DNA of 64,000 nt from Dehalococcoidia bacterium (GTDB taxonomy: Bacteria; Chloroflexota; Dehalococcoidia; E44-bin15), in assembly GCA_035528575.1 (NCBI GenBank), contig DATKYK010000005.1, positions 30,381-94,380 of the forward strand, written 5' to 3'. The position numbers and the translations under genes were made by a program. Shown in pieces: positions 14,997-56,267 of this stretch. Each line of letters opens with the position of its first letter. Positions within the stretch are counted from its first letter, which is position 1. A model generated the notes under the pieces. The model saw only the letters and a program-made list of their open reading frames with translations. It ran no database searches and was not told the origin of the DNA.

Positions 14997-15084
14997 TGGC
15001 GGGAGCGCATAGGAGTCGAACCTACCGTAGACACCGCATGGTGCCCACCAACGGATTTGAAGTCCGCGGAGTCCACCGGGGCCC
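14997..15084 (-). repeat. Truncated 3' copy of tRNA-Sec (88 nt, lacks the 5' acceptor strand). Direct repeat of 21308-21395.
   Basis: Reverse complement reads ...GGGCCCCGGUGGACUCCGCGGACUUCAAAUCCGUUGG...GGUAGGUUCGACUCCUAUGCGCUCCCGCCA. It is identical to the full selC downstream except for 1 nt, but has no 5' GGGAGCG partner for the acceptor stem. Confidence 0.75.
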
Positions 15085-16245: not shown

Positions 16246-16298
16246 GGGGGGCCACCCATTATCGGGTAGCCCCCCGTAATCCGCTTGGCTAGGCTTGG
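16246..16298. repeat. Islet repeat, composite copy 1. Element A (GGGGGGCCACCCATTATCGGGTAGCCCCCC, a hairpin-forming palindrome) plus element B (AATCCGCTTGGCTAGGCT).
   Basis: Element A recurs at 17777-17804 and 18796-18824, with ~20 nt of shared upstream flank GCTGTGGGyAA. Element B recurs at 16561-16578 and 17681-17698. Confidence 0.65.
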
Positions 16299-16310
16299 TA
16301 CGGCGCATCT

Positions 16311-16529
16311 CTACAACTTGAGTTTCTGAACTATCTCACCCTGGTTGGGAAACCGGCCAGTTTCACCCTTGGAGAACACGAGCTTATCATCTGCAAAAAC
16401 ATCAAAGATGCCGTTGCTACCGGGGACTAGCTTTGTCTCTACACCAAAGGCATTGCGTAGTTCATCCGCCAGACTGGCGGCAGCGGGCTCATAGTTTCAT
16501 TGCCTGCAATAATGTATGTCAACTTTCAT
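16311..16529 (-). CDS. SelW-like (Rdx-family) selenoprotein with CxxU motif and in-frame UGA at 16497-16499
   Basis: Minus-strand translation MKVDIHYCRQUNYEPAAASLADELRNAFGVETKLVPGSNGIFDVFADDKLVFSKGETGRFPNQGEIVQKLKL (72 aa). CRQU sits at the Rdx redox motif position, and the C-terminal G.F.V...KLVFSK..GRFP signature is typical of SelW/Rdx. AGGAGG RBS 6 nt upstream. Missed by the ORF track because of the TGA. Confidence 0.65.
16466..16499 (-). other. UGA (Sec) codon of the selW-like gene with a SECIS-like hairpin (CCGCCAG-UC-UGGCGG) 16 nt downstream in the mRNA
   Basis: Hairpin at plus coordinates 16466-16480 on the minus strand, with G/U in the apical loop. Confidence 0.45.
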
Positions 16530-16548
16530 AATGTACCTCCTGCGGATT

Positions 16549-16581
16549 CTACCCTCTCCCAATCCGCCTGGCTGGGCTCTT
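16549..16581 (-). promoter_or_regulatory. Conserved 5'-leader element (element B plus flank) immediately upstream of the selW-like gene
   Basis: Minus-strand AGCCCAGCCAGGCGGATTGGGAGAGG...AGGAGGtacattATG. The same ~30-nt block precedes the nitrilase-like ATG (17671-17703). Confidence 0.45.
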
Positions 16582-16842
16582 TGCGCCGCTATCTTTTGTG
16601 GTTGTGAGCATACTCCTGGGCAGTTAGACTGTCAAGAGGCTACCAACTAAAACCGAACCGAGCCGAATGGCGGTCTACCAATCCGCTTTTCAAATCACAC
16701 ACTAATTGGCAGTTTTGGGGCATACGGTAGTTGAAGTTTGCCATGCTATTGTTTTTAACATTACTCTGTCGCGAATTCTCTAGATGAAAAAAATAGATAG
16801 GCGGGGATTAAAACATGACTGGCAAAGATTGTCGAGACCTCA

Positions 16843-17667
16843 CTATGGTGGGGGAACAGCTAAAGATGTAGTTAAATTAGAACAGGCAGCGGGATTTTGG
16901 AGCGAGAAGTCTAATATTTTTATTTTTATACGAGGAGTACCTTCTAAAACCTTATTTGAACACTCCGTAGACATATATCCTTTGTGGGGAATATAGTATC
17001 TAAACTTAGCATCTGGGCCTTGCACATGAAGCGAACACATAGAGGCAATGCCATGCTCACCCTCGCCAAGCCCCTTCATACCATGATGTACTCTAAATCC
17101 AGCCCCTCTGTGGCCTAAATCAGCTACAACATTAGATCTGGATTTGCATTCTCTCAAAGCATCTCGGATACGTTGATTAAATATCTCCCCACATATAAGC
17201 ACTCCGAGAGCTTCATCACCTATCATTAGTAGACGTACTTCCTTGCACCTCCTGTTATCTACTAACCACTGGTTATCGCTATCGGTTGACCTCTGCCTAC
17301 CATAATGAATCATCTCTTCAGTTGGACCCCAAGCATATCCATACATAGGGTCAGGCCACCATACCGTAGCCTGCTTTTGTACTTTTACTTTTGTCTTTGA
17401 CCTATGCTGGGTAGAGTCTTTATTCTCCTCATCTACTCCGAATACTACAGCAATACTTAATCTTTCAGCCTCATTTATAAGGGAATTTGCGATACGTTGT
17501 CTTGACTGAGAATCATCACAAGTAAAAAATCCACCAGGCAGCACTAATACATCAGCGCCTAATTCCTTCGCCGCTATTAAGGCCTGCTTCGCAGCTTCCA
17601 GCCTCTGTTGATTCTCGGCAGGAGTTTCAGGCCCCTGAGTTCCCACCGTAGTCGCTGCTATTTTCAT
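16843..17667 (-). CDS. Carbon-nitrogen hydrolase (nitrilase-superfamily)-like protein. Assignment is uncertain.
   Basis: 274 aa. ADVLVLPGGFF and LICGEIFN are reminiscent of the CN-hydrolase catalytic Cys context, but the motifs are atypical. A GGAGAGG RBS lies inside an islet-specific repeat. Confidence 0.35.
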   Translation of the reverse strand: MKIAATTVGTQGPETPAENQQRLEAAKQALIAAKELGADVLVLPGGFFTCDDSQSRQRIANSLINEAERLSIAVVFGVDEENKDSTQHRSKTKVKVQKQATVWWPDPMYGYAWGPTEEMIHYGRQRSTDSDNQWLVDNRRCKEVRLLMIGDEALGVLICGEIFNQRIRDALRECKSRSNVVADLGHRGAGFRVHHGMKGLGEGEHGIASMCSLHVQGPDAKFRYYIPHKGYMSTECSNKVLEGTPRIKIKILDFSLQNPAACSNLTTSLAVPPP

Positions 17668-17670
17668 GTT

Positions 17671-17703
17671 GTCCTCTCCAAATCCGCCTGGCTGGGCTGT
17701 TTA
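17671..17703 (-). promoter_or_regulatory. Second copy of the conserved 5'-leader element, upstream of the nitrilase-like gene
   Basis: Minus-strand ACAGCCCAGCCAGGCGGATTTGGAGAGGacaacATG. Confidence 0.45.
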
Positions 17704-17754
17704 AGTCACTACGTTGTTCGTGAAAGCGATAATACTCCTGCGTTACTAGCCTAT

Positions 17755-17825
17755 CAATGCTGTGGGCAATAACAGAAAGGCCGCCCATTATCGGGTAGCC
17801 CCCTACAATGCGGCTGGTTATGCTA
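17755..17825. repeat. Islet repeat, composite copy 2 (A plus degenerate B)
   Basis: caatgctgtgggcaataacagaaaggccgcccattatcgggtagccccctacaatgcggctggttatgc. Confidence 0.6.
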
Positions 17826-17969
17826 ATGCTTCTAACTCACATTCCCGCCATCTTGCACCCTAAGACCCTCCTGCGCAGCAGTTATGCCAGAATGCCCGCC
17901 CCCTTATCCCGACAGGGCGAATATCGCTGTCACTGCATTAAGGAATCCTCATTGATTAACTAGATAGGC

Positions 17970-18266
17970 TTATCGAGATAATCTTTTTGCAATTTCAACT
18001 ACTTGGCTCAGCGAAGCGACAGGATGCACCTTGAAAAAGACGAACGGAACATAGCGTTGCACCATATCGCCAATTTCCTCCTCAGTTCCCTCAGCAACTG
18101 CATAGCCGTTGATCTCGCCAACGAATGCCCCCCAATCCTTAGTTAAACCTTTTTGCATATCTTTCTTAACCATATCGAGCAAGGTACCCCATCCGGTCCC
18201 TCGCTCTTGAGGACTAATAGGTACTTTCGTCCGGTCTACTTCCCAAAGCATCAGATACTTTCCCAT
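17970..18266 (-). CDS. Hypothetical small protein (98 aa), possibly a GYD/alpha+beta-barrel-like fold
   Basis: ORF with a weak NGYAVAEG motif. No confident family. Confidence 0.3.
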   Translation of the reverse strand: MGKYLMLWEVDRTKVPISPQERGTGWGTLLDMVKKDMQKGLTKDWGAFVGEINGYAVAEGTEEEIGDMVQRYVPFVFFKVHPVASLSQVVEIAKRLSR

Positions 18267-18539
18267 GGCCTTGTTCCTCCTTCTCTGATTAGTCTTCTGG
18301 CTTGCACTCGATTCTCAGGCTACGCGATATCATCACCTCCCTCGCTTTATATGCAGTGAGCCAGGGCTGGGCTTCTATACCCCGCTTAAAGGTTTTTAGG
18401 CAAAACCGTAGGTCACCATACTTCCTGAGCCGATATTCTTTTTTGTGTGAATCCTCAGTTTTGCCCGTATGTGATTATGGCTATTCTTGGCGCAACATTC
18501 CCATTATCAATTTAATTGTAATGGTGAACGGCACTTTTG

Positions 18540-18633
18540 TCTGTAGAGAAAGTCTGTATTTTTTGTGGGGAAAGTCTGTATATTTTTGTGTGGGGAAAAC
18601 CCTGACAAAAATGTGGATTTTTGTAGGGAGGGC
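18540..18633. repeat. Iteron-like direct repeats (AAGTCTGTAT(A)TTTTTGTG(T)GGGGAAA x2 plus a degenerate third copy, with GTCTGTA x3)
   Basis: Seen directly, ~300 nt upstream (in minus sense) of the 98-aa gene. Confidence 0.5.
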
Positions 18634-18773
18634 TTGACACACGTCGATACCGCAGTGCGGGCTGGCAGGCTCAAGGGTGCGGGGAAGCAGGAGCGCAGCC
18701 CGCAAGCACCGTGCGTAGCCCTATCGGGCAAGGCAAGGCAACGCTGCCTATATAGTAGTGAAAACTAGGCTGT

Positions 18774-18826
18774 CAGTGCTGTGGGTAAAAAGATAGGGGG
18801 CCACCTATTTTCGGGTAGCCCCTGTT
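18774..18826. repeat. Islet repeat, copy 3 (element A with shared upstream flank). Lies just 3' of the beta-helix gene stop.
   Basis: gtgctgtgggtaaaaagatagggggccacctattttcgggtagcccctg. Confidence 0.6.
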
Positions 18827-21307: not shown

Positions 21308-21405
21308 TGGCGGGAGCGCATAGGAGTCGAACCTACCGTAGACACCGCAAGGTGCCCACCAACGGATTTGAAGTCCGCGGAGTCCACCGGGGCCCATCCG
21401 CTCCC
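21308..21405 (-). tRNA. selC: tRNA-Sec (anticodon UCA), full length with encoded CCA
   Basis: Reverse complement GGGAGCGGAU GGGCCC-CGGU-GGACUC ... GCGGA-CUUCAAA-UCCGU ... long variable stem-loop ... GUAGG-UUCGACU-CCUAU GCGCUCCC G CCA. It has a 6-bp D-stem with 4-nt loop, UCA anticodon, long extra arm and 5-bp T-stem, all typical of bacterial tRNA-Sec. There is a G-G mismatch at acceptor pair 8. Confidence 0.8.
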
Positions 21406-55115: not shown

Positions 55116-55598
55116 GTGAAACCTTTGAGAGGCGTTCGAGTTGCTGTTCCTTATAGACTGTCACTTAAAAAAGCCGAGGAATTTGTTCACGCGAAGTCGG
55201 ATTGGATAAACAAGCATCTGGAAAGGATAAAACAGTATGAGCGAGAATATGAAGCCAACTCACAGAATGCCCCTGGTATCGACAGGGCAAAAGCGAAAAG
55301 AAAACTATCCCGAAGGCTCAAATACCTGGCAGATAAGCACGGGTTTACCTATGAAAGGGCGTTCATCCGAAATCAAAGGACAAGGTGGGGCAGTTGCTCT
55401 CAGAAAAACGACATCAGCCTCAATATGAAACTCGTCCGGTTGCCGGATGAATTGATGGATTACGTGATCCTGCATGAGCTTGCCCATACCCGATGCAAGA
55501 ACCACAGCAGCGAATTCTGGGCCGAGTTGGATAGACTTGTCGGAAACGGGAAGGGTATGGACGCTCAATTGAAAGCATACGGACTGGGATTATTATAA
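55116..55598 (+). CDS. DUF45/YgjP-like HExxH metal-dependent hydrolase (M48-like). The N-terminus may use a non-canonical start or be truncated.
   Basis: ILHELAHTRCKNHSSEFW zinc motif. The in-frame upstream sequence (..IDGIGLVLFERSKRAKHLNIS) looks like the family N-terminus but has no ATG/GTG before the stop at 55002. Confidence 0.55.
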   Translation: MKPLRGVRVAVPYRLSLKKAEEFVHAKSDWINKHLERIKQYEREYEANSQNAPGIDRAKAKRKLSRRLKYLADKHGFTYERAFIRNQRTRWGSCSQKNDISLNMKLVRLPDELMDYVILHELAHTRCKNHSSEFWAELDRLVGNGKGMDAQLKAYGLGLL

Positions 55599-56267
55599 TA
55601 GCACCATATCCGATCGATTAATTCGCCCAGCCAGGCGTATTTGGGACAACCCGACAGAAAAATGCAACCCAACTTGCATCCGGCCATAGCCTATCATTTC
55701 TAGCCTGTTCCCGCGCCGGGCCATTTCACAAGAGTAATTTGCAGTTCTATAATCTGGCCGATCGGAGAAACCCACCAAAAAGGCTTATGCTATATCAACA
55801 TCAGATGGTACGCTTGCCTAGTCAGGCGAAATGTATCATATATGCCACAGCTATACTTTGCAGATCTTTATCATGGTGCCGTAGTGCTTCGCCTTATATT
55901 GCCAGCACAACCTCATGTTGCAATTTTATGACTGTATCACGTAAGCACACCCATCCGGCTACCACGACCGCAGGGCTTACAGTCGCCATTTGACCGCGTA
56001 TCAGCGAAGTGATAGCCCTTTACCTGCTTGGACGGCTGCGATTCTCCCGGAAAGCCCATTCCCCACAGATGGCCTCCTCAACAGCAAGTCGCTTGCTCTG
56101 GTAGAAGACGCTCATCGAGGAGATGGGATATACCCTGATAAGACCTGTTTGACACGACCACTGTAGTTGATGCGGTAAATCCCTGGATAATTAGATTGCG
56201 ATAGCGGGCTAAGATGAAGAAGAGCAGCACAGGTCTTGATTCCAACATGGGAGGGATGCTATAGTAT

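Follow-up and report, generated by a model that had tools for sequence, protein, structure and literature searches.

A terminator-like hairpin and an 18-nt leader box in a Dehalococcoidia tRNA-Sec island are probably pieces of a modular intergenic linker

The stretch of DNA analysed here, 64,000 nt of Dehalococcoidia bacterium contig DATKYK010000005.1 (assembly GCA_035528575.1, positions 30,381 to 94,380; hereafter the window), carries a 6311-bp (6.3-kb) island bounded by copies of the 3′ part of tRNA-Sec. Two short motifs recur between the island's genes: element A, a hairpin-forming palindrome, and element B, an 18-nt box. An earlier note, made from the sequence alone, had described them as a repeat system private to the island, with A as a private terminator or a mobile repeat and B as a regulatory element shared by the cargo genes. 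Our analysis argues that A and B are probably the most conserved pieces of a modular intergenic linker, consisting of terminator, promoter and leader, that belongs to the accessory-gene pool of uncultured Dehalococcoidia.

The core of A, GGCCACCCATTATCGGGTAGCC, occurs at positions 16250, 17779 and 18799 with zero, one and two mismatches, respectively, nowhere else in the 64 kb, and not once in 100 shuffled sequences. A covariance model built from the A copies that we collected, applied to every position of the window, finds strong copies only at these three sites (51–57 bits). On the minus strand, which is the strand of the adjoining genes, A reads as a 10-bp GC hairpin, GGGGCUACCC-GAUAAU-GGGUGGCCCC, followed by a U-rich tail. 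All three copies lie downstream of a gene, as the earlier note had observed, and are co-oriented with it. A1 (16246–16275, minus strand; GGGGGGCUACCC-GAUAAU-GGGUGGCCCCCC; 57.2 bits) is situated 35 nt past the stop codon of a SelW-like gene and folds, together with its flanks, at −39.3 kcal/mol (z = −4.5). A2 (17777–17804, minus strand; 52 bits), whose tail is U-rich, lies 165 nt past the stop of a gene for a 98-aa protein. A3 (18797–18822, minus strand; 51.4 bits), in which the hairpin is followed by CUAUCUUUUU, lies 28 nt past the stop codon of a beta-helix gene and is the only window copy that passes a simple terminator scan. The flank once thought to accompany every copy is common to A2 and A3 (17745–17772 and 18764–18791, 82% identical), but not shared by A1; it contains CCCACAGCAyTGAyAG and carries the −35 box of a sigma-70-type promoter. 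Further features around A were considered and set aside. A “degenerate A” upstream of the SelW promoter (16660–16700) belongs to the conserved 3′ region of the module that holds the gene for a 274-aa protein, pairing of B with the A flank to lengthen the hairpin is seen for A1 only and is not general, and a pseudoknot between an AUUAU 5′ of A and the AUAAU of its loop was judged sterically implausible.

Element B, AATCCGCCTGGCTGGGCT, is exact at 16561 and 17681 and present with two mismatches at 16278, against a chance expectation of 0.09 matches. On the gene strand it reads AGCCCAGCCAGGCGGAUU and then runs into UGGAGAGG. The three A and three B copies originally counted in the island are thus confirmed, with none expected by chance, and the two exact B copies indeed lie in 5′ untranslated regions at ribosome-binding sites. 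In the SelW-like leader, B (16561–16578) and the adjoining GGGAGAGGG form a box at 16552–16578 (minus strand) that ends 31 nt before the ATG, with the likely working Shine-Dalgarno sequence, AGGAGG, at 16536–16541, 6 nt before the start codon. In the leader of the 274-aa gene (ATG at 17665–17667), the box spans 17673–17698 (minus strand), comprising B at 17681–17698 and a UGGAGAGG Shine-Dalgarno sequence at 17673–17679; this B copy ends 13 nt before the ATG. The CTCTCC flank previously set apart as an extra conserved block is present, but it is the complement of the GGAGAG Shine-Dalgarno sequence rather than a separate element. The third copy, AGCCUAGCCAAGCGGAUU (16278–16295, minus strand), lies in the 3′ untranslated region of the SelW-like gene, where it is fused to the 5′ side of A1. 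The window holds more copies than these: a degenerate one, AGCAUAACCAGCCGCAUU, matches at 13 of 18 positions 5′ of A2 (17807–17824, minus strand), and a B-like copy with two mismatches lies outside the island on the plus strand (55624–55641), 26 nt past a 160-aa open reading frame (ORF; 55116–55598) with a HELAH motif. This last copy and the B site in locus L057 have homologous upstream flanks but different downstream sequences.

Between A and B lie promoters. The SelW-like gene has a sigma-70-type promoter, TTGACA-17-TATGCT, at 16607–16635 (minus strand), and the 274-aa gene has another, TTGATA-17-TATTAT, at 17729–17757 (minus strand), directly 3′ of A2. A promoter-like CTGACA-16-TATATA (18749–18776, minus strand), read by eye and below the promoter-scan threshold, lies 3′ of A3 inside the flank that it shares with A2. 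The intergenic unit therefore has the order B, A, promoter, leader, B and ribosome-binding site. The promoter-leader-B module of the SelW-like gene recurs before different downstream genes, with 82.9% identity over 105 nt in L155, 86.7% over 83 nt in L119 and 84.1% over 82 nt in L161.

Element A is not confined to this genome. Scanning species-representative genomes, we found its core in 39 loci and the full hairpin in 24 copies from seven assemblies, four of which are labelled Dehalococcoidia or Dehalococcoidales (taxonomic labels are those of the record titles). Dehalococcoidales MAG-BB-17 has the full hairpin in 11 contigs, Dehalococcoidia Uz-K9-09 and JL_US_03_9 have four copies each, JL_RS_05_24 (labelled Calditrichales) has two, and SFP3_RM_33, Dehalococcoidia N7_337 and SMAG_U14251 have one each. 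The covariance model detected 14 more copies in contigs that had been fetched independently by means of B, and viral contigs contain no match to A. In an alignment of 27 copies, 18 core positions are invariant. The copies occur singly, and L031 has two that are 6.6 kb apart. A palindromic repeat family around GCCACCGATTTTCGGGTAGCC, with conserved flanks, in Casimicrobiaceae assemblies (L011, L024, L030 and L032) is unrelated and was picked up by the A pattern by chance.

The orientation of A is strongly biased. When each copy is read on the strand that gives the hairpin a U·G wobble rather than a C·A mismatch, a co-oriented ORF (called mechanically, as in all loci) ends upstream in 19 of 22 scorable copies, mostly 2–190 nt away (two-sided binomial p about 0.0009 by our own calculation). 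The ten nucleotides after the hairpin contain on average 5.7 T, whereas the other strand has 3.1. Folding energies are −22.5 kcal/mol (z = −5.1) for the sense RNA and only −17.2 kcal/mol for the antisense RNA, because there the wobble becomes a mismatch; in variants of A, the wobble is replaced by C-G or U-A. Approximately half of the copies have TTGACA 16–29 nt downstream and then GGAGTATGCT, giving a fused promoter of the form TTGACA-N17-TATGCT. The flanks of A fall into a few unrelated classes. A second conserved class on the 3′ side, CTTACTAGCACAACCTCACGATATATTTTTTCAACTACATTCTGCACGCACACCTGTGCAG (L015, L020, L022, L028 and L037), contains an inverted repeat of its own, and several of the copies that carry it lie behind genes of about 550–600 aa. 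From its placement and strand asymmetry, A behaves as a repeated intrinsic terminator for the upstream gene. The terminator half of the earlier description thus fits, while the claim that it is private fails with the occurrence of A in seven assemblies.

Element B, too, is widespread, with the exact 18-mer in at least 119 metagenome contigs. These contigs are short, and since the sample was gathered by exact match, conservation within the motif is overstated. The consensus over 116 distinct sites is B followed by TGGAGAGG, with no information 5′ of the motif or beyond 8 nt on its 3′ side; further copies in the fetched contigs have one to four mismatches, mostly at positions 2–4, 9, 11 and 14. 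B always reads in the gene sense and occurs in two contexts, being followed by a Shine-Dalgarno-like run at 114 distinct sites and by AYRR and hairpin A at 15–18 sites. The few matches inside coding sequence look like chance. An ORF of at least 50 codons starts 5–60 nt past B at 50 of the 99 sites that have sufficient downstream sequence, compared to 10 of 99 for a control anchor, and at 38 of the 99 it starts within 5–29 nt, 27 of these 38 with ATG. Boxes resembling a −10 element, many of the extended TGn form, are enriched 5–30 nt upstream of B (33 across 114 sites); elsewhere, B comes within a few bases of the preceding gene's stop codon. The genes that follow are diverse (nitroreductase, cold-shock, EthD, thioesterase, SnoaL, RRM and others), and in L140 five small co-oriented genes form an array with B before each. 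B-carrying contigs contain ordinary anaerobe chromosomal genes, and the top 25 families among 139 large ORFs include no phage, integrase or transposase family, a weak negative given the short contigs and the restriction to 25 families. In viral contigs, a degenerate B pattern has four matches, about the number expected by chance, none with a clear Shine-Dalgarno sequence or gene context. A folded form of B was rejected, as it is no more structured than its shuffles (z = +0.94), and its resemblance to a tRNA D-arm or acceptor stem, like its 8-nt complementarity to the tRNA-Sec anticodon arm, was treated as chance. One B-carrying contig also contains an ordinary Moco/tungsten riboswitch (RF01055, 41.5 bits; L155, 3653–3816).

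Sequence homology frequently breaks at B. Homology is limited to the upstream side in 35 pairs of B sites and to the downstream side in 22, and 11 pairs have it on both sides. One promoter module, for example, precedes several different downstream sequences, and cold-shock genes follow several different upstream sequences. Around an EthD/thioesterase joint, L140, L064, L088 and L078 together represent the upstream/downstream combinations (U1,D1), (U1,D2), (U2,D1) and (U2,D3). L083 and L165 are colinear save for a 909-nt segment present only in L165. B copies bound this segment, which holds a cold-shock gene and has a degenerate B inside it, and the overlap between the two alignments is exactly the 26-nt motif. 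Two other candidate insertions or deletions bounded by B were explained by repeated promoter modules. In L155 and L061, promoter-B-A units occur in which A follows B without an intervening gene.

Orthologues of the 274-aa protein, with 69–75% amino-acid identity, are found in other neighborhoods, without A. Their leaders have a recognizable B at the same place, followed by GGA(T/G)AGGACAAC-ATG, yet it is degenerate, with three, five and about eight mismatches. Leader-box conservation in orthologous islets had been a test named in the earlier note. Since B is kept at the same place, the leader box is an old part of this gene's 5′ region, with the perfect consensus in the island. The same note had called the protein nitrilase-like; Pfam, NCBIfam and PADLOC give this label no support, and the protein is not detectably a nitrilase. 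In L168–L173, the orthologues adjoin genes for N6/N4 methylase, NotI, AAA_15, PLDc_2, Hypoth_Ymh and Trypsin_2 proteins, a neighborhood resembling a defence island. Some 170 nt downstream of the 274-aa gene (16660–16842, minus strand), including a hairpin, AGCGGATTGGTAGACCGC, are also conserved behind the orthologues in L168, L170 and L171 and could represent a small RNA or a 3′ untranslated element; a 70-aa antisense ORF (16784–16996, plus strand) overlaps this stretch.

We propose the following arrangement on the gene strand: B, hairpin A with its U-rich tail, a promoter of the form CCCACAGCA-TTGACAG-N14-GGAGTATGCT, a short leader, B with UGGAGAGG, and the start codon. In this linker, A would act as the intrinsic terminator of the upstream gene. 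B would be an unstructured, transcribed 18-nt box, and because a G-rich tract (the 5′ arm of hairpin A or else a Shine-Dalgarno sequence) follows it directly, it would supply or abut the ribosome-binding site of whatever ORF follows. Since identical B copies separate many unrelated genes, B sites would also be the places where upstream and downstream modules are exchanged, inserted or deleted. The motifs would cluster in the island because the island consists of such accessory genes, integrated as a set at tRNA-Sec. Recurrence, orientation, the asymmetry of the hairpin, the link to start codons and the mosaic junctions are shown by the sequences, while termination itself, a role of the 18-nt core of B in translation or factor binding and the mechanism of recombination are inferred. 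The extreme conservation of the unstructured 18-nt core points to a trans-acting partner, with an RNA-binding protein, a pairing RNA and a recombinase as candidate readers.

Several observations sit uneasily with this proposal. Both termination at A and the transcription start sites are predictions from sequence; the U-tract after A is interrupted (e.g., UUUCUUAUU), and its stem and loop are near-invariant across loci and species, beyond what terminator function calls for. At about half of the B sites, an ORF of at least 50 codons is missing within 60 nt, and the SelW-like leader has its separate AGGAGG as the likely Shine-Dalgarno sequence, so UGGAGAGG is not always a working ribosome-binding site. 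In three orthologue leaders of the 274-aa gene the −10 box abuts B, which is degenerate there, and the 5′ half of B may not be transcribed in these orthologues. Finally, a systematic search for insertions or deletions bounded by B yielded a single clean case, that of L083 and L165.

The competing explanations differ mainly in what they take B to be. It is doubtful, in our judgment, that B serves as a dedicated site for site-specific recombination, comparable in function to integron attI/attC or pdif, in which promoterless ORFs would be placed between B copies, behind a resident promoter and ahead of A, and the translation signal would be a built-in by-product. The mosaic junctions, the precise 909-nt insertion or deletion with its 26-nt alignment overlap, the L140 array of small unrelated accessory genes with B before each, the promoter-B-A units of L155 and L061, which resemble empty sites, and the position of the window's SelW-like gene between direct B copies would all fit such a site. 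However, the same patterns follow from RecA-type exchange between stretches of 26 identical bases. B lacks dyad symmetry, does not fold and has no GTTRRRY or R/L boxes, and the lack of integrase and transposase families among the 25 most frequent ones, noted above, argues weakly in the same direction; the decay of B in place in orthologous leaders resembles vertical inheritance of a 5′ untranslated region. Integron attC sites are imperfect palindromes of 57–141 nt with R″, L″, L′ and R′ boxes and a GTTRRRY core. What likens these loci to integron cassettes is that a conserved repeat stands between small accessory ORFs, unrelated but arrayed in one orientation, that synteny breaks at this repeat, and that repeat-bounded blocks are gained or lost. 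In contrast, B is a 26-nt unstructured sequence without the R″/L″/L′/R′ organization that lies 5′ of the ORF and carries a Shine-Dalgarno sequence, and neither A nor B contains GTTRRRY in an attC arrangement. Quite unlikely, too, is an action of B as a DNA element, either an operator for a regulator or a promoter used by a specialized polymerase or sigma factor, T7-like in having about 18 conserved bases and then GGAGA. Such a role would suit a sharply bounded, non-palindromic, orientation-specific 18-nt motif that is followed by GGAGAGG and recurs before each gene in arrays, and in the three orthologous leaders where the −10 box abuts B, the −6 to +12 region may include part of B. Good sigma-70 promoters, however, lie upstream at variable distances (0, 9, 28 nt and more), so that B does not keep a constant spacing to the start site. 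In many places B is squeezed in between one gene's stop codon and the start of the next; in B-A fusions its promoter would fire straight into a terminator, in the case of A1 facing a convergent gene; and the island genes keep B even though the island has no polymerase gene.

For A, with or without B, the alternative is a selfish repeat, akin to repetitive extragenic palindromic (REP) elements or miniature inverted-repeat transposable elements (MITEs), that spreads by transposition and whose positions are simply tolerated insertion sites. The near-identical sequence at many loci and across species, the few flank classes, and the extragenic, palindromic nature of the copies speak for it, and repeat spread and use as a terminator are not mutually exclusive. 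We nevertheless consider it unlikely, given the 19/22 orientation bias toward an upstream gene, the wobble-versus-mismatch asymmetry of the strands, the U-rich tail on one side only, and copies that are single rather than in paired clusters like bacterial interspersed mosaic elements (BIMEs); moreover, inspection of the 27 aligned copies with their flanks, with no dedicated search, found neither terminal inverted repeats beyond the hairpin nor target-site duplications. A plain MITE, which the earlier note had linked to random placement of copies elsewhere in the genome, was rejected on the same grounds, as the copies show a positional preference. Proteobacterial REP and BIME elements are short, repeated extragenic palindromes, often at gene 3′ ends, that can terminate or stabilize transcripts; they are associated with RAYT (Y1 transposase) genes and form clustered inverted pairs. 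A resembles them as a short, repeated palindrome outside genes and often at their 3′ ends. It differs in its single copies, its strong orientation bias and the promoter fused to its hairpin, and no RAYT gene was identified. That the system is private to the island, with B co-regulating the SelW-like and 274-aa genes and A as a private terminator, is very improbable. All three A copies and three of four B copies in the window do lie inside the island, but one B copy is 37 kb away from it, both motifs are widespread outside the island and outside this genome, and the genes preceded by B are functionally unrelated. Because both motifs are so widespread, B is not a device for co-regulating the island's cargo but rather a generic leader and junction motif of a lineage.

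An extension of the proposed linker, which we offer tentatively, is that B marks an unrecognized gene-cassette system in Dehalococcoidia, in which a 26-bp direct repeat would serve both as recombination joint and as ready-made ribosome-binding leader, and the 18-nt core may be read by a dedicated sequence-specific factor. If so, an ORF dropped between a resident promoter-B unit and a B-A terminator would be expressed at once, an integron-like logic without attC hairpins. The searchable literature contains no report linking Dehalococcoidia with attC cassettes and no paper that prints the sequence of A or B. Rfam gives no match at the gathering score or at E values up to 5 in the island or in ten B-rich loci, and plasmid and phage records contain no match to the A-promoter-B module.

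The closest parallel in kind to A is TRIT of Mycobacterium, a sequence-conserved, repeated intrinsic terminator that is largely bidirectional, centered around −8 relative to the stop codon, and present in 147 copies per genome (RNIE paper, PMC3152330). Both are stable hairpins conserved in sequence and structure, with many copies tied to gene ends, and in both the conservation exceeds the needs of termination and hints at an extra factor. A differs in sequence and lineage, in its strand asymmetry, in its position mostly 2–190 nt past the stop codon and in its copy number (at least 11 in the best-sampled draft genome). It would thus constitute a sequence-conserved family of repeated terminators that is unusual in often being fused to a promoter and to B. 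For B, the nearest counterpart is the 13-bp start-associated sequence (SAS, with its extended form ESAS) of Cluster K mycobacteriophages, GGGATAGGAGCCC, which lies 3–7 bp from start codons and is known from phage genomes only (PMC3203893). Each is an asymmetric, conserved motif with a Shine-Dalgarno core that occurs in one orientation upstream of the starts of unrelated genes, sometimes overlapping the upstream stop codon, and is suspected of a role in translation or factor binding. B, however, is a different sequence of 18 + 8 nt on contigs with chromosomal genes, its distance to the start codon is variable, and it is also fused to a terminator and marks recombination joints. The promoter-leader-B module of the SelW-like gene (82.9–86.7% over 82–105 nt) meets the similarity definition of putative mobile promoters, namely 5′ regulatory sequences of 50–100 nt that are at least 80% identical upstream of non-homologous genes (PMC3488235). 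Those are defined by similarity only, whereas here the anatomy of terminator, −35 box, −10 box, leader and ribosome-binding box can be resolved, and no single promoter module comes close to B in how widely it recurs.

Dehalococcoidia abound in the subsurface. Little is known of the gene-expression signals in the lineages that carry these motifs, because metagenome assemblies are the only source of information on these lineages. The terminator, the consensus promoter and the 26-nt leader provide reference points for the annotation of transcription units, small ORFs and gene starts in their metagenome-assembled genomes. If B is confirmed as a shuffling joint, it would reveal how small stress and detoxification genes undergo turnover in streamlined genomes and would offer a natural “plug-in” expression context.

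The island itself is bounded by an 88-nt direct repeat of the tRNA-Sec 3′ part. One copy is a remnant directly after selB, abutting its stop codon (14997–15084), and the other (21308–21395) lies inside the intact tRNA-Sec gene (21308–21405, minus strand). The GC content drops from ~57% to 45–49% within these bounds; the low GC content and the tRNA-Sec repeat identify the 6311-bp segment as an integrated island. It adjoins the selD-selB selenium gene cluster, and no integrase-sized ORF is visible inside it. A C14 metacaspase is encoded on the plus strand, and a beta-helix surface protein, the 98-aa protein (no PADLOC or NCBIfam match), the 274-aa protein and a SelW/Rdx-family selenoprotein on the minus strand. 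The selenoprotein gene (16311–16529, minus strand), which has direct B copies on both sides, contains an in-frame TGA at 16497–16499 within a CRQU motif, and its product passes the NCBIfam SelT/W/H cut-offs. It is convergent with the metacaspase gene, with A1 between the two. A selenocysteine insertion sequence (SECIS) element is not obvious in it, with only a small, unremarkable 6-bp hairpin 19 nt past the UGA. Upstream of the 98-aa gene, a long GC-rich leader (18300–18760, minus strand; fold z = −2.8) separates the start codon from the A3-linked promoter. This leader contains a 22-nt tandem repeat at 18548–18598, and its 5′ block, GGCAGCGTTGCCTTGCCTTGCCCGATAGGGCT, recurs in L019, L020, L037, L042 and L045; the leader could represent a non-coding RNA or one more repeated element.

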